Below, one piece after another: positions 1,132 to 12,461 of a stretch of DNA of 32,000 nt. The notes beneath the pieces are model-generated. The model worked only from the letters and a program-made list of their open reading frames with translations, was not told where the DNA came from and did not search any database. The DNA comes from an uncultured Chloroflexia bacterium (lineage in GTDB: Bacteria > Chloroflexota > Anaerolineae > Anaerolineales > Anaerolineaceae): positions 1,350,001-1,382,000 of the forward strand of contig OY969938.1 in assembly GCA_963704755.1 (NCBI GenBank), in the 5' to 3' direction. Each line of letters starts with the position of its first letter. Position 1 is the stretch's first letter. Both the position numbers and the translations under genes were made by a program.

Positions 1132-2361
1132 CTATCCAGCCTGGCGCTCTACCAGCAAGTCGCACAGTTCGCGCACCGCACCGTGGCCGCCCGGCCGCGA
1201 AAGGACCACGTCGGCCGCCCGGCGAGCTTCCGGCTGGGCATCCGCTACCACTACCCCACACCCGACCAGCGGGAAGCAGGGCACATCGTTGATATCGTTC
1301 CCCAGGTAAATCGCTTCCTGCGGATCGATTTGTTGTTCCCTTAAGTAATTCTTTAACACTCCGGTCTTGTCGGCCACACCCTGGATATAGGGCAAGCCGA
1401 TTTTCTCACAGCGGGCCTGGACGACTTTGTTCGTCTCGGCCGAGATCACCACCACTTTGACGCCGGTATGCATCAGCCTGGCCAGCCCGAGGCTATCGGA
1501 GCGATATACAGCCACGTATTCGTGCGCCTGGTCATCCACCCAGGCGCGATTATCGGTCATGACCCCGTCGAAATCGAAGACCACCAGCTTGACCTGCTCT
1601 GGCAGCGGGCGGCGCGCTTGCCCGGGCGTGACCATTTCCAGACCCGATTCGCGCACCAACCGCTCGGCATTGATCCAATCACCCGGGTTGTCGATATCCA
1701 CCGTGTAGCGCGGGTCCACCATCACCGGAAAAATTACCCTGCCGCTCATCGAACCCTGCTCCAGGATGGTGGTGGAGCGGATGGCATCGATATGGCCGGT
1801 CTGCCAGTAAACCGGTGGCAGGACCTGGCGCGGGGCGTTGTAAGGCTCGGCAATGCCGGCTACGTCGATCAGGTTCTTCATGTAACCGGTCTGGGGATCC
1901 ACTCGCCACATTTTGTGCGGGTTTTGCCCGGATGGCACGATCCCGCGGACCGAATCGACCTCCGGGTGATCGATCAGGGTTTGCACGGCCTGATCGACCA
2001 GGCCTACCGGCCGGACCGGGGAAGTCGGGCGCAACTGCACCACGATATCAGGCCCGTAGGCCTCGTTAGAGGTCAACCAGGCCAGGGCATGCTGAAAGAC
2101 CGGCAAATCCAGCGTGTTGTCTTGTGCCAGCGCCGGCGGGCGCAAAAAAGGCACATCCGCCCCAAAGTTCCGGCCAACCTCCGCTATCTCGGGGTCGTCG
2201 GTCGAAAGGATTACCCGTGTGACCAACCTGGACTGCAAGCCGGCTGCAATGCTATACGCAATCAACGGATAACCGGAGAAATCGCGGATGTTCTTGTGCG
2301 GGATACCTTTTGACCCACCACGGGCCGGGATGATGGCCAGGACTTCGAGGCGTTTTACCAT
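1132..2361 (-). CDS. neuA: fusion protein: N-terminal acylneuraminate (CMP-nonulosonate) cytidylyltransferase and C-terminal KdsC-type (C0) HAD sugar-phosphate phosphatase
   Basis: N-terminal LAIIPARGGSKGIPHKNI motif of CMP-NeuAc synthetases. The C-terminal half has HAD motif I (VVFDFDGVMTDN), motif II (VVISAETN) and motif IV (YLGNDINDVP), as in KdsC and KDN-9-P phosphatases. The ORF track starts at a TTG at 2370. I prefer the ATG at 2361, which has a GGAGG 9 nt upstream. It overlaps the end of the SDR gene. Confidence 0.85.
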   Translation of the reverse strand: MVKRLEVLAIIPARGGSKGIPHKNIRDFSGYPLIAYSIAAGLQSRLVTRVILSTDDPEIAEVGRNFGADVPFLRPPALAQDNTLDLPVFQHALAWLTSNEAYGPDIVVQLRPTSPVRPVGLVDQAVQTLIDHPEVDSVRGIVPSGQNPHKMWRVDPQTGYMKNLIDVAGIAEPYNAPRQVLPPVYWQTGHIDAIRSTTILEQGSMSGRVIFPVMVDPRYTVDIDNPGDWINAERLVRESGLEMVTPGQARRPLPEQVKLVVFDFDGVMTDNRAWVDDQAHEYVAVYRSDSLGLARLMHTGVKVVVISAETNKVVQARCEKIGLPYIQGVADKTGVLKNYLREQQIDPQEAIYLGNDINDVPCFPLVGCGVVVADAQPEARRAADVVLSRPGGHGAVRELCDLLVERQAG

Positions 2362-3179
2362 GCCGTCCAACCTCCATCCACGACCAGGTTTGCACCGGTC
2401 ATGTAGCTGGATGCATCTGAGGAAAGGAACAGGATCGCCCCGTTCATCTCGTCCTGATGGGCCATACGGCCCATCACCGCCCGGTAGGAATAATTCTGAA
2501 CGAAGGTCTCATTGTGGTTGACGAAGACCCCACCGGGCGTCAGCGCATTGGCGCGGATATTCCGCCCGGCATAATACGTAGCCAGGTAGTGGGTCAAGCC
2601 CAATACCCCGGCCTTGGTCACCGAATAAAATACCGGCTTGAACTGCTGGGGCTGGCCAGGGCGCTCGTAGATCCGCTGGTCCGGGCCGACCAACCCGTAG
2701 GTAGAGCAAATGTTGATGATCACCCCGTGATTCTGGTCGATCATAGGCCGGACGGCTGCCTGGGCACACAAAAACATGCCGGTCAGGTTGACATCCAGGG
2801 CTTGCCGCCAGGCGTCCAGGGGATAAGTTTCGAATGCGTTGTTCTGTTGGCCGCTCTGATGTTCCTCGTCGAACTTGGGGTCCATCGCTGCGCTGCAAAT
2901 CAGCACGTCCAGCCGGCCGTACTGGTTGATCGCCGCGGCGACCATGTCTTCCACCGAAACCGGATCGGTCACATCCACGCCGGTGCCAACGGCCGAATAG
3001 CCATCCTTTTGCAGGTTTTCAGCCACGGTCACGGCCGCGCTGCGGTTGAGATCGGCCACTACCACCCCCGCCCCGGCCTCAGCCAGCGTGCGGCAAAATT
3101 GCTTACCTAACAATCCGGCCCCACCGGTAACAGCGACGGCCTGGCCTTCCATTGAAAATTTATCAAAGATATGAGTCAT
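2355..3179 (-). CDS. SDR-family (short-chain dehydrogenase/reductase) oxidoreductase
   Basis: 274 aa. Has the TGGAGLLG cofactor motif, a YSVTKAG catalytic Y-x3-K and a C-terminal YMTGANLVVDGGWTAW typical of classical SDRs. Confidence 0.85.
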   Translation of the reverse strand: MTHIFDKFSMEGQAVAVTGGAGLLGKQFCRTLAEAGAGVVVADLNRSAAVTVAENLQKDGYSAVGTGVDVTDPVSVEDMVAAAINQYGRLDVLICSAAMDPKFDEEHQSGQQNNAFETYPLDAWRQALDVNLTGMFLCAQAAVRPMIDQNHGVIINICSTYGLVGPDQRIYERPGQPQQFKPVFYSVTKAGVLGLTHYLATYYAGRNIRANALTPGGVFVNHNETFVQNYSYRAVMGRMAHQDEMNGAILFLSSDASSYMTGANLVVDGGWTAW

Positions 3180-3200
3180 ACTTCCTCGGATCGATCCATT

Positions 3201-3971
3201 TTAGGGTAAAGAATAGCGGTTCTTCATCTCTTCCCACTGGCTAGGGGAACAAGACTGGAAATGCATGTCCATGTTCGGGCAGGTTTGAATGGAATAATAG
3301 GCCCCACACGCATCTGTACAACTGGCGACGATGCAAGGATTGCCATCCGGGGCGATCCGGCATTCGGTCTCACAAGACACGTTTTGCCCGCGCTGCGGGC
3401 AGGAGTTGTAGGTGTTGTAAGCCGGGACCGCCGTAGCGAACAACAGGCTTGGAATTTCAACTGTCGATTGATAAATTACTTCACCCGTATCAAAATCCCA
3501 AATCTTCAGGCTGATCGACTGGTCCAACGCCGGTTTGCCAATCCCCTGGCAGAACAATTTATCCGGGTATTGGGCGTCAAACGTACACGAGTACGAAACA
3601 CCCCCTAACTCGAGTTTATAGTTTTTATTTACCCCGGGCAAATCTACCGTGGTCATGACGCCATAAACATTGGTGACCAGGCCGGTAATCTTTAAATTAG
3701 CGAAATCTGGGCCTTAAATCGCGGTAGCGCTAGGGATGGGCGTATCACTAACCGCAGGCACCTGAGTCGGAGTCGGTACAGGTGTATCGGAAGGCAAAAT
3801 TGTCGCCGATGGCGACTGGCTGGGCGACTGGGTCGGCACAGCCGTAGCCGGTGCAGATGTATCCGTCGCGGCCGGTGTTGCGGTCGCCGATGTACAGGCA
3901 GAAACAATCAACACGATCAGGCAAAGAACAGGTCCTATCCATAATTTCGATTTCTGGCTGGATGGTTTCAT
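3201..3971 (-). pseudogene. paralog of the 4077..4847 Cys-rich lipoprotein, interrupted by an in-frame TAA at 3716-3714
   Basis: ORFs 3714..3971 (lipoprotein signal peptide plus Pro/Thr linker) and 3201..3656 (Cys-rich domain) are in the same frame. Translating across the stop gives ...SATAI*GPDFANLKITGLVTNVYGVMTTVDL..., which aligns with ...ATPSIAFDQAKIIGVTQQL... of the intact paralog. Confidence 0.75.
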
Positions 3972-4076
3972 AATTTACCCACTTAGAAAGTTTACTCCGC
4001 GGAAATACAGGAAATATTGTAACTGATCTGGCCCCGGTGGGTACGCTTCACTCATCCCGTGACCCAACCTGCCCGA

Positions 4077-7361: not shown

Positions 7362-7399
7362 GAATTTGAGGCACTTGCGGCTGCAAACACCTCAAATTC
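7362..7399. repeat. intergenic palindromic element, second member of the GAATTTGAG hairpin family
   Basis: Arms are gaatttgaggcacttgc and gcaaacacctcaaattc: a 10-bp and a 4-bp stem around a 3-nt bubble, with loop ggct. The reverse complement of the right arm (gaatttgaggtgtttgc) matches the 1024..1039 arm over gaatttgag, and the next 6 nt agree at 5 of 6 (gtgttt vs atgttt). Confidence 0.55.
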
Positions 7400-7418
7400 C
7401 GTCTTTTTATACGCAGAT

Positions 7419-8384
7419 TTACATCTGCCGGTCATAATACCAACGAAATATTTTGTCGTATAAACCCAGCAGTGCCCTCTTGACCGGTGGGAAATCCAGA
7501 ATCGGGTGTTTGCCGGCATCGGCCTGGCGGGCGGGGGCTTGCCCGGCCTGGGCCGCCTGCACCCCGCGCAGGGTATTGGACATGTTCATGGCGTAGGGCT
7601 GGACGGGCATCAGCCGCAGCAGGCCGGCCCCGTTCATGCGCTGGTCGAGCTGCTTGACCTGGCCCATCGGGCGGTCCATGGCGAAGGGCAGAAATTGGGC
7701 CAGCACCTTCTTGTAAGCCAGAAACTGCCAGTGCGAACCGCCCGCCAGGGCCTGCAGGCCGCGGTAGGTCAGGCGCACATCCTGGCTGGTCTCATAATGC
7801 TGGCGAATTTCCTCGTCGGATTGGCCCAGGCTGAGGTCGAACTCCTCGAAGGTCTCCCAGGGGATGAACTGGCCCTGCTCGACCGCCACGTCGGGAGTCG
7901 TTTGGCCCCAGGCGAGGGTCTTGCTATAAAAATCCGGGTTGGTGCGGAAGGGCCGGGAGGTGACCATGCCCACGTTGGGGTAGGTTTCCAGCAAGACCAG
8001 GCTCTCTTTCAGCCAGCCGGGGTAGAACAGCACGTCGCTATCGGCGTAGGCGATGATCTCGCCCGGCGCGCCGCTCAGAATCATGTTCCAGGCGCCACCC
8101 TTACCCAGGTTCTTCTCCGAAAGCAGCAGGTATTGAATGCGCCCCTCGCGCTGTTCATTGAGCAGCCAGTCCTGCACTTCCGGGCAGCTGCCGTTGTCGA
8201 AGACCATCAGGTCGAACGGCTCGCCGGCCTCGGTGCGGGCGGATTGCAGGCAGGCCTTGAGCACGTCCAGCGTCTCGCTGTAGAACCCGCTCAAAAAGGG
8301 AATGTAATTCAAAACCGCCGCGGTGATCCGCTCGGGTCGGGCAACGTTTTTCACATACTTGGCCGGGTTTTGGCCTACGCGCAT
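7419..8384 (-). CDS. family-2 (GT-A fold) glycosyltransferase
   Basis: 321 aa. Has MVFDNGS and YADSDVLF (DxD-type) motifs. Strong GAGGAG RBS 6 nt upstream of the ATG. Confidence 0.8.
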   Translation of the reverse strand: MRVGQNPAKYVKNVARPERITAAVLNYIPFLSGFYSETLDVLKACLQSARTEAGEPFDLMVFDNGSCPEVQDWLLNEQREGRIQYLLLSEKNLGKGGAWNMILSGAPGEIIAYADSDVLFYPGWLKESLVLLETYPNVGMVTSRPFRTNPDFYSKTLAWGQTTPDVAVEQGQFIPWETFEEFDLSLGQSDEEIRQHYETSQDVRLTYRGLQALAGGSHWQFLAYKKVLAQFLPFAMDRPMGQVKQLDQRMNGAGLLRLMPVQPYAMNMSNTLRGVQAAQAGQAPARQADAGKHPILDFPPVKRALLGLYDKIFRWYYDRQM

Positions 8385-8416
8385 ACGAAACTCCTCAAGT
8401 TCATAATCGGAAAGAT

Positions 8417-8589
8417 ATCACCGCAGAGACGCAGAGGACGCTGAGAAGAAATTATATTAATTCTTCGAGGAATGGCGCCTTGTTCGGCACGGTTCCCTGG
8501 CCAAGGGCACTCTTCAGCGTTTGCCAAGAAGGTTTCACCGCAGAGACGCGGAGGGCGCTGAGAAGAATTTATATTAATTCTTCGAGGAA
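8417..8589 (+). repeat. two direct copies of a 55-bp repeat (8418..8472 and 8535..8589), each starting with a triple 8-mer (CGCAGAGA CGCAGAGG ACGCTGAG) and ending in an AT-rich palindrome (gaagaaattatattaattcttc)
   Basis: My hand alignment gives 52/55 identical positions. 8417..8437 is a perfect 21-bp inverted match to 9468..9488. Confidence 0.85.
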
Positions 8590-8715
8590 AGTCTTTTTCG
8601 GCAAAGTCTCTCGATCGAGGCCGATTTCCAATGCCTGAATGGAGAATTCTCAATGTAAATAGCAAGGGAACACGCAAAAGGAGCAGTGAACGAGGCGAAG
8701 ATGGCAAAACCTTTG

Positions 8716-9108
8716 TCATGACGCTTGCTCCTCGTAATTCAGGACAATTCGGCGCAACCCACGTTTCAGGACGGGCACATTGAAATTGATTAATAAAGCT
8801 GTTTTCCAACCGCCCAACTTTAAATAGGTGATCACCTGAGCCTCATGGATTGGCAACACAGTTTCAACACATTTCAATTCGACTACAACCAGATCTTCTA
8901 CCAAAAAATCCAACCGATAACCACAATTGAGGAGCCTGTCCTTGTAGTGAACAGGAAGCTCCATCTGTCTTCTAAAACTTAATCCTCTCAGGCCAAATTC
9001 ACAATCCAGGCATTCTTCATAGGCCGATTCCAATAAACCGGGGCCCAATACTTTATGAACCTCGATCGCAGCGCCTATAATTTTTTCAGTAACCTGGTTA
9101 ATTTCCAT
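8716..9108 (-). CDS. GxxExxY-family protein (PD-(D/E)XK nuclease-like fold)
   Basis: 130 aa. [13 protein letters not shown] contains the name-giving G-x2-E-x2-[14 protein letters not shown] is the D...E-x-K-like core. Visibly lower GC than the flanking biosynthetic genes. Confidence 0.85.
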
Positions 9109-9197
9109 AATAGTGGCTCGTTGTATTCTCTGAACTTCTCTAACGGTCCTTCTCTAAATCTTTATTTACAATCTTTCTCTCTTCCTCTCTCCTAAAA

Positions 9198-9490
9198 CTC
9201 TTCTCTGCGCCCTCAGCGTCTCTGCGGTATTTTTCATTCCTAAATCCGCTTTTCTTCTCCGTGACCTCTGTGGCTTTTTATTCCAAAACCCATTCTTCTT
9301 CTCCGTGAACTCCGTGCCTCCGTGGTTTTCTATTCCAAAATCCTCTCTTCTTCTTTGTGCACTCTGTGGTTTTCTTTCTTTCTCTCTCTTTTCTTTTTTC
9401 TTAAATCCGTTTTTCTTCTCCGTGCACTCCGTGCCTCCGTGGTTATTTATTCCTAAATCCTTTGCGCCCTCTGCGTCTCTGCGGTGATTA
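9198..9490 (-). repeat. array of about six degenerate tandem units
   Basis: Read on the minus strand, each unit is GGATTT(A/T)GGAATAAA...CCAC(G/A)GAG(G)CACGGAG..CACGGAGAAGAA, or the CCGCAGAGACGC(A/T)GAGGGCGC variant. Units are at about 9198-9248, 9252-9291, 9293-9343, 9345-9400, 9413-9460 and 9461-9490. The outer units (9198..9229 and 9461..9490) are inverted copies of the 8418/8535 repeat. The last unit contains the TAA stop of the 9488..10399 gene. Confidence 0.8.
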
Positions 9491-10399
9491 TTTCTTCTTC
9501 AGCGCTTTGCGCAGTTCGGGCAGGCCTTTCCTGGGATGGAATACGGCATAAAAAAGCCACGCCAATCGAGAAGAGTGCAGGCGCACCAGCGGGAAGATCT
9601 CCACCTCGCGCCAGAAACGCCGCCAGGTCAGCGGCAGCCGGCGGATTTGGCCGCCCGCCAGACGGCAGGACACATCCGCCAGTTTGAAGATGGTCAATTT
9701 GCCGCCGCCCAGGCGCACGTTTTCGTCCGTCTCGGGCAGGCGATAATGGGGTTGGCCGTTCGGCAGGTGCGCATAATCGTGGTTCTGGTGGACCACCTGC
9801 ATGTCGGCGGTAGCGTCCACCACGGCCCAGCCGTTCCGGCGGGCAAAATAAATCATCCAGTTGTCCCAGCCGGCCCGCCCAACCGCCATGGGTGGCAGCG
9901 TAGCAAAGCAGGCGCGCGGGAAGATGAAGTAATCGCTGCCCCCGGCCGGGTGCAGCCGGCCGGCGTGAGCCAGGAAATCGCAAAGATGGGCATCCCAACC
10001 CTGCGAAAAATCGAGGTCCTCCTGCACGTCCAGGTCCCAGCGCTGGCCAACAACCAGGAATTTATCGAACCGCTCTGCCACACAGGCAGCCCCGCTGACA
10101 AAATCCGGCCGTAAAAGAATATCCGCGTTGACGTAGGCCAGCAGATCCCCGCTGCCTTGCCGGCGGGAGATATCGAAGATCGAGCTGATCAGCGGCGTGC
10201 CGTAACTGTTGCGGTCCACCTCTGCCACGTGTAAAACACCCAGGTCCCGCGCGGCTTGCTCGATACCGTCTTCGTTGCCGATCAGGATCACTTCAACCTG
10301 TGGTCCCAGGGCCTTCCACGAGCGGATGGCATTGCGCTGGATACGGGCAATATGCGCGTTGGTAAAGGGTTTCGGTGCAGTGAAAAGCGTCAGCAGCAT
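9488..10399 (-). CDS. putative GT-A-like glycosyltransferase (uncharacterised family)
   Basis: 303 aa. Coding quality is clear. The N-terminus FTAPKPFTNAHIARIQRNAIRSW and the acidic motif YVNADILL resemble a widespread unnamed glycosyltransferase-like family. The function is inferred from context. Confidence 0.5.
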   Translation of the reverse strand: MLLTLFTAPKPFTNAHIARIQRNAIRSWKALGPQVEVILIGNEDGIEQAARDLGVLHVAEVDRNSYGTPLISSIFDISRRQGSGDLLAYVNADILLRPDFVSGAACVAERFDKFLVVGQRWDLDVQEDLDFSQGWDAHLCDFLAHAGRLHPAGGSDYFIFPRACFATLPPMAVGRAGWDNWMIYFARRNGWAVVDATADMQVVHQNHDYAHLPNGQPHYRLPETDENVRLGGGKLTIFKLADVSCRLAGGQIRRLPLTWRRFWREVEIFPLVRLHSSRLAWLFYAVFHPRKGLPELRKALKKK

Positions 10400-10408
10400 C
10401 GAGGCACC

Positions 10409-12461
10409 TTAATTCCCGCAGGAAAGGTTGATTTTCAGCCAACCGTAGCGGTCGGCTTGGGCCGAATCGAGCGAACTCTCATCCAGCGAATCCTTCCAGA
10501 TCGAGCACAGGTACGGCTCTGCCCCGCGAACAGTCTTGCGGACTGTATCGGTCAAATCGTAGGCCTGGTCCCAATTCTGGGTATGGATATCCGCCTCGAT
10601 GAACGGGATCAGCTCGGTGCTGACATTGGTGCTGACCTGCGCCTTTTGGGCCTGGCTCCACAACTGGTTGACCGTATCCCACTGGCCAAACTGACGTGCC
10701 AGGTCCGCCTTCTGGTAATAGTAACACCAGCTATTCTGGTCCTGAACCGGGAAGAAAATTTTCTGGGCATAACCCGGATCGGGTGTATCTTTGATCAGCG
10801 ACATATCGGCCGCATCCAACGCAGTGCGCGTATCCTCATCGATCAGCGGGTTGAGCTTATCCTCCGGCGAAAGCACCCACAAGCAGGCGCCGGGTACCTC
10901 GCCATAGGAAATTACCAGGCTGCGGTTGCTGACACCCTGGAAAGAGTCTTGCCAGCGCACCTGAGTCACATCGACTCCGTTGGCCAGATCGTACATGTTG
11001 TTGGGAAAATACTTGCTCAAGGTCAGGAACCAGTAATCGAACTGGTTGGATTGTTTGGCCTGGTCGGATTGGGGGTAGAGCACATTTAAAGCAAATGAGG
11101 TGGGGTAAACCCCCATCTTGGAGAACAGTTCATTATCCGAAAGGATGAGCGTATCCGGCTCCAACTGGGGCACGCGCCAGCCCAATTGGGAATAGAAACG
11201 GGATTGGTTGATCCACGACCAGCGATAATCGCTCAAGTTGCGGGATTGGACCCCCACTGCCAGACCGATCAATACACTGATCACGATCAGCCGGGCTTTC
11301 TCGCTGCGCACCAGCCAATAGATCAGGGCCACAATCGCCAGGGCAGCCCCCGGCATGGATGCGATGCCAAAGCGGTCATTCCACAAGCCGCTGGTATCGC
11401 TGATGTGGCGGTCGACCAACCAGCCCGGCAGGAAACCCAGGACCATCCAGGCAACGCCAACCCAAAACGCCTGTATATACCAGGTGGAGGAAGAATTCTC
11501 TTCCCGTTCTACCGGCTGGGTAATGAACCGGCTAAAAAAGAACACCCCAATTGCCACCAGGATGAATAAGCCCAGGGCCAGAATCAGCGCCGGGGAAGTG
11601 AAATCGATCATCGAGGGATCGAAAGCACCCGACCAGGTATAAAAGACCATGTGAACCAGGTCGCGCAGGCTGGACTGGACCAGGCTTAAAATTCTTAACC
11701 GGCGATTGGGCCAGCAATTGGAATAACTTGACGTAATTCCGGTCCCGGCTGATGGGGAGTTGGATAAAGAACTCGCGCCAGACCACAAACGCCACCCAAA
11801 CGGCCAGGTAGGGCGCCCACATTTTGATCACATACAGGCGGCGCTTTTTGGGATCGGAGGAGACATTTTTGGAATACAACCACAGCAGGATGGGCCGGAA
11901 CAGCTCCAGGCCGACAAAGAACTCCTCCAGCACAAAACCAACCCCATTCAGAATCAATCCCAGCAGAGTCAGGGGGATGGCCCAGCGCGGTTTTTGAGTG
12001 GCCAGGATCATCAGGTAGAAAGTGGCCACGATGCACAGGAACGAGAACCAATGCGCACTGAAGGTGAGGGAAATGGGCTGCTGCATAAACTGGGGATAGA
12101 CCAGGAAGAGCAGGGCCGCCAGTGTGACCAGCACCCGCTGTTTGGGCCAGATCTGGTTGAACACCAGCCAGAAGAAAATAACGGTCAACACCCGGGCAGT
12201 GAAGGTGAAGATCTGCCAGGCCAGGGCGTTATAACCCAGGGTTGCGAAAAGCGGCAAATAAAACCAGCCGGAGAGCGGACGGGTATCGACTGCGTGGAAA
12301 AGGATCGTACCGGCGTTGCCATTGGCAGTCTGGAAGAAAAGATTGGGCCAATCATCCAGGTAAAAACCGATCTGGGGCAGGTATATCCCAAAAGTGACCA
12401 GGGCAACGGCCAGAATGGCCAGGACCGGCAGGAGTTTGCCTTTTCGCAATTTATTGATCAT
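10409..12461 (-). pseudogene. large polytopic membrane protein (GT-C-like glycosyltransferase, oligosaccharyltransferase or polymerase candidate) with a +1 frameshift near 11688..11696
   Basis: ORFs 11532..12461 and 10409..11788 overlap in different frames. The sensible sequence switches from ...KLFQLLAQSPVK (frame of 12461) to ILSLVQSSLRDLVHMVFYTW... (frame of 11788) at an A4/T4 run. Joined, the protein would be about 680 aa: more than 10 hydrophobic segments, an early FYLDDWPN loop and a soluble C-terminal domain of about 280 aa. Confidence 0.7.

Follow-up and report, generated by a model that had tools for sequence, protein, structure and literature searches.

Analysis of a 32,000-nucleotide stretch of DNA from an uncultured Chloroflexia bacterium (contig OY969938.1, positions 1,350,001 to 1,382,000; the whole stretch is hereafter called the window) revealed a segment at 8417-9488 that is very probably a laterally acquired cassette, bounded by inverted repeats and inserted at this site. 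The segment (~1.07-1.1 kb) lies between a gene for a 303-aa protein (9488..10399) and a GT2 glycosyltransferase gene (7419..8384), with all three genes on the minus strand, and its single gene (8716..9108) encodes a 130-aa nuclease of the GxxExxY family that is framed by arms built from tandem CRCRGAG units. The arm motif is specific to this gene family, and the gene has spread among phyla along with its arms. The presence of the same gene-plus-repeat unit in at least 15 phyla suggests a small mobile element of a kind not described before.

The ends of the cassette are defined by a perfect 21-bp inverted repeat, ATCACCGCAGAGACGCAGAGG, at 8417-8437 on the plus strand and 9468-9488 on the minus strand. 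The two copies differ by 0 mismatches and lie exactly where a preliminary description of the sequence had put them, and its proposal of a cassette bounded by inverted repeats is borne out. Further copies of the 21-mer, with 2-3 mismatches, occur at 8534-8554 (plus strand) and 9211-9231 (minus strand), and no match is expected by chance (100 shuffles). Read along the gene strand, the element starts 0-1 nt past the upstream TAA and stops 32 nt short of the GT2 ATG. The preliminary description had counted 33 nt to this start codon and had rightly included a stop-codon base in the right end, which is the last base of the TAA on the gene strand (position 9488), not the first. The intervening 8385..8416 (minus strand) is probably the native intergenic spacer, judging from the spacers of relatives, and holds a Shine-Dalgarno-like GAGGAG, the ribosome-binding site of the GT2 gene, which the insert leaves intact.

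Comparison with three relatives, GCA_034411135.1 (L195), GCA_900174595.1 (L196) and Longilinea arvoryzae (L198), established that the orthologous junction is empty in all three, with spacers of 6, 23 and 8 nt, respectively; the window thus carries 1,103 nt at a junction that measures 6-23 nt in its relatives. Both neighboring genes are intact, the upstream protein having 303 aa against 310-315 aa in the relatives and the GT2 protein, assigned by Pfam, 321 aa against 317-329 aa. Alignment of orthologous junctions was the check put forward in the preliminary description, and it sustains the view expressed there that the insertion did not break the operon. Nor does the region belong to a sequence conserved in all relatives, or the repeat to this site alone, two possibilities raised at the same time: the relatives lack the insert, the exact 20-mer terminus is present in 20 IMG/VR stretches, and arms of the same kind occur at 70 of 80 other GxxExxY loci. 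The 303-aa protein itself is conserved in Anaerolineae, with homologs in Thermanaerothrix and Longilinea, but its earlier designation as GT-A-like found no backing, as a Pfam search returned no match. Beside the homolog from Thermanaerothrix daxensis (Logan contig L197) the GT2 gene is absent. The L196 genome contains a different GxxExxY cassette (7390-7990) elsewhere in the orthologous operon, between a 487-aa gene and GFO_IDH_MocA. Its gene encodes a protein of 138 aa with 60% identity and is framed by arms of the CACAAAG type, and the placement of cassettes at differing junctions is an insertion polymorphism within one conserved operon.

A survey of the family, in which one genome per species was scanned, gave 80 loci with proteins 57-71% identical, drawn from at least 15 phyla that include Acidobacteriota, Chloroflexota, Planctomycetota, Verrucomicrobiota, Pseudomonadota, Desulfobacterota, Bacteroidota, Elusimicrobiota, Actinomycetota and Thermotogota, among others. 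Nearly all of these loci have about three CRCRGAG motifs within 500 nt upstream of the gene on the sense strand and about three reverse complements downstream, and when the best inverted repeat was sought at each locus, the gene proved to be framed by motif arms, TTCACC-(CRCRGAG)x3 and its reverse complement, in 70 of the 80. The basic arm is a 28-32-nt inverted repeat of three tandem 8-9-nt CRCRGAG units, with the consensus (T)TCACC-RCAGAG-R-CRCRGAG-RN-CRCRGAG-A(A); a gap of 0-40 nt mostly separates the upstream arm from the ATG, the downstream arm begins 3-20 nt past the stop codon, and a typical gene with its arms occupies ~450 nt. Homologs outside this set have arms as well. In Bacteroides finegoldii (48% identity) the gene lies between radA and the gene for an FAD-dependent protein with CRCRGAG arms, in Sphingomonas (37%) between fabD and fabG with CGCGAAG arms, in Bernardetia (54%) between ade and a mannose-1-phosphate guanylyltransferase gene with CACAGAG arms, and in Treponema (43%) between genes for a hypothetical protein and a Fic protein, with arms that consist of an 11-nt ACACGGATTCG repeat.

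One junction recurs among the surveyed loci. An upstream gene ending ...LLDAMLLAVPR* and a downstream DUF499 gene enclose the cassette in five metagenome-assembled genomes (MAGs; L001, L007, L010, L022 and L024), whose labels are Acidobacteriota, Verrucomicrobia, Planctomycetota and Desulfatibacillum, with L007 described only as 'bacterium'. Either the whole system has been transferred, or cassettes have inserted repeatedly at this junction. Literature searches for 'GxxExxY' and PF13366 returned incidental mentions only, eleven exact arm sequences appeared in no paper, and publications on S23p / IVP, REPIN / RAYT and 'S23 ribosomal' with 'polysaccharide' did not describe these repeats. Subscription-only literature and the notes of family-database curators aside, we thus found no published description of GxxExxY genes linked to flanking repeats.

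Set beside the widespread ~450-nt unit, the window segment is best regarded, with reasonable though not high confidence, as an expanded and nested copy. The outermost inverted repeat reaches 25 nt at 96% complementarity (9464-9488 with 8417-8441) and the innermost arms pair over 34 nt at 91% (9195-9228 with 8537-8570), and the structure is therefore nested. The element CRCRGAGNNCRCRGAG has 8 matches, all within 8430-9475, against 0.15 expected. On the 5' side of the gene, six units on the gene strand (9195-9488) each open with 2-3 CRCRGAG motifs, the number that the preliminary description had estimated. The outer arm A (ATCACCGCAGAGACGCAGAGGGCGC, CGC type; 9464..9488) shares its first base with the end of the upstream TAA and is followed by four extra arms identified by repeat and motif searches: arm B (9413..9443) with three CACGGAG units and then GAAGAA, arm C (9348..9370) with the two degenerate units CACAGAG and CACAAAG, arm D (9296..9326) with three CACGGAG units, and arm E (9252..9275) with CACAGAG and CACGGAG. 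The inner arm F (9195..9228), again of CGC type, is separated from the ATG by a purine-rich leader of 86 nt (9109..9194). On the 3' side, the reverse complements of arms F and A (R2, 8537..8570, and R1, 8417..8449) lie within direct repeats at 8412-8472 and 8529-8589, which had been described as 55 bp long and prove slightly longer, at 61 nt and 92% identity. The periodic arrays noted earlier are real, but they consist of additional inverted-repeat arms, six 5' and two 3', and do not form a separate class of repeat. Like the gene, these arms and spacers are all given here on the minus strand. GC content is 0.41-0.47 inside the insert and ~0.60 in the flanks, as the reported AT-richness had implied.

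Expansion of this kind is seen elsewhere. Arrays of 4 tandem arms with identical spacers flank the gene on one side or on both, in L017 (2283-3212) and downstream of the gene in L038 and L041, with periods of ~64, ~103 and ~60-180 nt, and L025 holds similar arm arrays; amplification of arms like that in the window is therefore recurrent. The 3' part of the window cassette has further features of its own. Diverged coding-like remnants precede each 3' arm on the minus strand (8450-8528 and 8567-8645, ...GQGTVPNKAPFLEELI and ...GLDRETLPKKTFLEELI): the spacer between gene and R2 (8590..8715) ends in what reads as ...LPKKTFLEELI*, and the spacer between the two 3' arms (8450..8536), recognized in the repeat search, in a second remnant, ...PNKAPFLEELI*. 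Both end in FLEELI*, with the stop codon inside the palindrome GAAGAAWTTATATTAATTCTTC, and the palindrome GAAGAAATTATATTAATTCTTC (8445-8466) is assigned to the spacer between the two 3' arms. The GAAGAAWTTATATTAATTCTTC module has no copy in IMG/VR, and when the 330-nt 3' region was compared with other loci the arms alone matched. An E-value scan of 7800-10000 against Rfam gave no match, and a terminator and promoter scan gave nothing convincing on the gene strand. Beyond the cassette, the open reading frames (ORFs) at 10409-11788 and 11532-12461 (both minus strand) overlap and correspond to the C- and N-terminal parts of one protein, matching residues 268-673 and 12-266 of a 696-aa L196 protein (1900-3990); the frameshift near 11690 indicates a pseudogene or a sequencing error.

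The cassette protein belongs to PF13366 PDDEXK_3 (E 3e-42, 143.9 bits against a cut-off of 22) and TIGR04256 GxxExxY (E 2e-43, 147.7 bits against a cut-off of 35). The G24-L-L-E27-S-A-Y30 motif together with D67, E77 and K79 is invariant in 33 sequences, the catalytic E27, D67, E77 and K79 are all present in the cassette protein, and an AlphaFold model (predicted local distance difference test, pLDDT, 86) has the alpha-beta core of a PD-(D/E)XK nuclease. The best Foldseek matches are weak (lambda exonuclease, Cas4 SSO0001 and the AdnAB nuclease domain; E 3e-3 to 3e-2, TM ~0.5), a sequence search of solved structures gave nothing real, and the PADLOC and PHROGs models do not match the protein. 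Judged by its conserved residues and modeled fold, the nuclease looks active. The family comprises 21,226 representatives at 50% identity (E <= 0.001), among which tandem two-domain GxxExxY proteins of ~260-295 aa also occur (P0241-P0256 and similar). This large family, which has no known function, clutters operons, with polysaccharide, fab and defense loci among them.

Arms also exist apart from the gene. The 28-nt arm pattern matches 114 IMG/VR stretches (viral or prophage contigs), and a tblastn search of these 975 kb found no encoded GxxExxY protein. The gene-less arms comprise 70 hairpins of the form F-loop-R, whose loops span 5-130 nt and are not conserved in sequence, and 52 single arms, most of which are followed shortly downstream by the start of a predicted ORF; a few arm pairs on viral contigs enclose other small ORFs of 51-157 aa. 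Hairpins of CRCGAAG units, some nested inside CRCRGAG hairpins, are present in four of the stretches (L088, L093, L113 and L115), which suggests several arm subfamilies and the insertion of hairpins into hairpins. The Limisphaera isolate at L030 has a dense local cluster of arms and hairpins between ORFs that we presume, by eye only, to be HEPN-like and nucleotidyltransferase-like. At L057, a 78-nt F-loop-R hairpin (490-620) and a single arm (~723) lie in frame, reading as ...NHKGTEDTKSLDSSDLRDLRASVVN..., within an 821-aa ORF that we likewise presume, by eye only, to be helicase-like.

The genomic setting of the gene suggests a passenger that depends on host transcription. Mean GC of the gene is ~0.50 against ~0.60 in the flanks and is lower in all but three loci, which points to a foreign origin. 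Insertion junctions are diverse and lie mostly in housekeeping operons (fab, radA, polysaccharide). By a crude ORF-based call, the upstream neighbor is co-oriented with the gene in 67 of 77 loci and both neighbors are in 40, and in 42 of 58 loci the arm begins no more than 15 nt after the stop codon of a nearby co-directional ORF, a closeness that mainly reflects insertion into short operon spacers.

The two arms of a locus have a shared history. Over 20 nt, complementarity is 89.5% for arms of one locus and 77% for arms of different loci; in a set of 60 arm pairs, the share of paired cells is 92%, compared with 87.1% in shuffles (0 of 500 reach the observed value), and 91 cells are doubly changed compared with 38.5 in shuffles. 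All six sub-repeats of a locus share one type, CGC in 30 loci and CAC in 39, and this type agrees with that of the nearest protein neighbor in 54 of 69 loci, whereas permutations averaged 34.5 and never exceeded 49. Arm type thus follows the protein, and the gene is therefore passed on with its arms as a single unit in which repeated concerted switches have taken place. Host GC was ruled out as the cause of arm type (0.59 vs 0.60), and the search for a residue that would specify CAC or CGC arms produced one C-terminal column alone, which is not convincing. Transversions, which break pairing, account for 85 of 217 arm mismatches (~39%). From these sequence patterns we regard the arms as conserved elements that undergo joint copying rather than as a stem kept by compensation at the RNA level.

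A second, unrelated gene family shares this architecture. A consensus-like four-helix-bundle probe, composed by hand, retrieved 80 metagenome loci (L203-L282), of which three sampled proteins are PF05635 '23S rRNA-intervening sequence protein' (E ~1e-35), the family of the ORF carried by the 23S rRNA intervening sequences (IVSs) of Leptospira and Coxiella. In the 73 loci with enough flanking sequence, inverted repeats scoring at least 14 flank the gene in 50, compared with 8 of 73 in a control that paired upstream and downstream flanks of different loci. These arms, too, are tandem units with a period of 7 or 9 (GTTCAAGNC, GTCCAAAG, GTTGCAGG and GTTTCAAG), and none contains CRCRGAG; the earlier statement that four-helix-bundle genes are also preceded by short periodic repeats thus stands, but the repeats have a different motif rather than a similar one. 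Because two unrelated proteins each have arms of their own, the arms are likely to be recognized by the protein they accompany, rather than by a sequence-blind host RNase alone. The Coxiella 23S IVS, at 428-444 nt, has a 28-bp terminal stem that is cut by RNase III in vitro (PMC4990558). We raise, tentatively and with more doubt than conviction, the possibility that GxxExxY and PF05635 cassettes belong to a single undescribed superclass, the 'foldback / IVS-type' elements of prokaryotes, each with a ~120-aa gene and tandem-unit arms read by its own multimeric protein, in which the 23S rRNA IVS would be the special case that landed in rRNA and the GxxExxY nuclease would drive movement of gene-bearing and gene-less forms by a route unlike that of known transposases. 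The architecture of the GxxExxY cassettes in any case provides a link to a 30-year-old puzzle, the origin of ORF-carrying rRNA intervening sequences.

For the cassette itself we favor, with moderate confidence, a model in which it is a selfish, promoterless element similar to an IVS or to the pairing of repetitive extragenic palindromic (REP) sequences with a REP-associated tyrosine transposase (RAYT), whose mobility we infer and whose arms are probably the recognition sites of its own nuclease. The unit was inserted immediately past the stop codon of the upstream gene, in the short gap that separates two co-transcribed glycosyltransferase genes. Each tandem unit of an arm may be recognized by one subunit of the nuclease, which would cut DNA at or near the arms, and host repair or recombination could then copy or move the unit by gene conversion of the REP/RAYT or homing type rather than through a DDE transposase. 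The encoded nuclease may itself be the mobilizing enzyme, a departure from the initial description of the cassette as non-autonomous. In the operon transcript, base pairing between the two arms is predicted to give a stem of 25 bp or more with the ORF in its loop, the arrangement known from ORF-carrying 23S IVSs, and this stem is a predicted RNase III substrate. By burying the start region of the nuclease gene, it could keep nuclease levels low and make the insertion tolerable. The extra CAC-type arms B-E and arm R2 would be remains of insertions or duplications that recurred at one spot. In RNA folding of the window element, both the outer and the inner stem (the latter formed by arms F and R2) are kept in minimum free energy and centroid structures, and the compact element at L011 folds with z = -4.7.

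Several observations weigh against this model. A PD-(D/E)XK hydrolase cannot rejoin DNA alone, and mobility would need host functions. No target-site duplication was found in 67 loci or at the window termini, flanks beyond TTC / GAA are not conserved and reveal no conserved target in the same 67 loci, and there was no sign of an excision footprint, a circular form or a recent identical copy. The gene is present on 7 of 72,556 plasmids and 0 of 50,697 GenBank phages, numbers on which plasmids and phages were rejected as its carriers. Nearly all of the covariation between arms traces to two columns with a joint switch between A-U and G-C, and concerted evolution could yield it without selection for pairing. 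Apart from the one C-terminal column, protein residues do not track CAC or CGC arm type. G-U mismatches do not significantly exceed A-C mismatches on the sense strand of the arms (76 vs 56, p = 0.10), nor do they in PF05635 arms (49 vs 60), and an RNA role of the arms is therefore unsupported by the mismatch test.

This last result also bears on the strongest competing explanation, in which the arms belong to an RNA-only module that benefits the host, with stems that serve as processing or stabilizing sites of polycistronic mRNA, cleaved by RNase III or a related activity, or in translational coupling that adjusts how strongly adjacent genes are expressed, a nuclease that is a rider or a processing factor, and an arm sequence whose conservation reflects a host factor and not mobility. 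The co-orientation with the upstream gene (67 of 77 loci), the start of the arm just past a stop codon, the abutment of arms on start and stop codons, the predicted long-range stems, and the hairpins and single arms that lie between or directly upstream of predicted ORFs on viral contigs would all fit such a role, for which the 28-bp, RNase III-cut stem of the Coxiella 23S IVS (PMC4990558) is a precedent. We nevertheless consider it unlikely. Relatives without the insert at the same junction indicate that the operon does not need the cassette, the AT-rich composition argues for a foreign origin, G-U mismatches are not in excess over A-C, and ~39% of arm mismatches are transversions that break pairing. 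The sequence conservation of the arms is telling because simple RNase III stems would need no conserved sequence: RNase III is sequence-independent, yet at least 15 phyla keep the motif, and each of the two cargo families has a motif of its own.

A role in addiction or defense, with the nuclease as toxin or anti-phage effector, the repeats as regulators acting through antisense or decoy RNA, and spread as a passenger of defense islands, appears improbable. PD-(D/E)XK nucleases are common as effectors, several cassettes lie inside the DUF499-containing system (the one junction shared by five MAGs), and the L030 arms lie between the ORFs presumed, by eye only, to be HEPN-like and nucleotidyltransferase-like. 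Against this, there is no PADLOC or PHROGs match, the cassette has no partner antitoxin or sensor gene, and most insertion sites are the housekeeping operons named above. A local regulatory region, a chance or slippage repeat, an integron-type cassette or a degenerate CRISPR array, suggested by the tandem and periodic upstream units, is extremely improbable and already refuted by the empty sites in relatives and the family-wide distribution of the arms, which occur in hundreds of unrelated loci with no chance matches expected and lie on both sides of a gene whose neighbors are of glycosyltransferase type rather than integrase or cas, in a region without an Rfam match.

The problem posed by this unexplained family becomes testable, as conserved family-specific arms, intact host operons and gene-less relatives provide a defined protein and a defined 8-nt motif with which to work. 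Annotators, in turn, can recognize such inserts and avoid spurious repeat-derived ORFs such as '...HRDTEDTE...'.

Comparison with known systems places the cassette close to several of them. The basic unit shares with the 23S IVS a size of ~430-450 nt and a single ~120-aa ORF within terminal inverted repeats that form a ~28-bp stem (PMC4990558), and like the IVS it is AT-richer than its host, sporadic and laterally acquired, and tolerated inside a transcription unit. In the window, complementary termini with a predicted long stem enclose a small ORF, but the IVS resides in rRNA helix 25 or 45 whereas the cassette lies between protein-coding genes, and the IVS cargo is the PF05635 four-helix bundle 'S23p' whereas that of the cassette is the PF13366 PD-(D/E)XK nuclease. 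The arm motifs differ as well, CRCRGAG in the cassette as opposed to GTTCAAG-, GTCCAAAG- or GTTGCAGG-type units beside PF05635 genes. With REP/RAYT systems the cassette shares one small nuclease-type gene flanked by inverted repeats, the same repeats being dispersed without the gene, and gene-less hairpin doublets that are scattered intergenically and often clustered (compare PMC8266576). RAYT is an HUH/Y1 enzyme, however, whereas the cassette protein is of PD-(D/E)XK type (PDDEXK_3 / GxxExxY alone in Pfam and NCBIfam), and REPs are species-specific palindromes with a GTAG head whereas the cassette arms are tandem octamers conserved across phyla.

Resemblance to other mobile elements is also partial. 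Miniature inverted-repeat transposable elements (MITEs) and foldback transposons have inverted termini of tandem sub-repeats in variable copy number, with or without an ORF, as in the Drosophila FB elements, whose long inverted termini are made of short tandem sub-repeats; the cassette, unlike these, is prokaryotic and far smaller. Measured against insertion sequences as well as MITEs, it has no target-site duplication and no recognized DDE or other transposase, its sole ORF being the 130-aa nuclease. PD-(D/E)XK homing endonucleases, of which I-Ssp6803I is a free-standing or intron-borne example, are likewise small selfish nuclease genes that leave host function unbroken and probably spread by cutting and host repair, but the cassette lacks a conserved flank or fixed homing site and any intron or intein framework. 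Integron cassettes have a single 3' attC in an array beside intI, whereas here arms lie on both sides of the gene amid glycosyltransferase-type neighbors, and PADLOC assigns the cassette to no known anti-phage system. The cassette works like an IVS or a REP/RAYT pair yet fails the defining features of each, because it lies outside rRNA, carries no PF05635 gene, and encodes an enzyme that is not of the HUH type.

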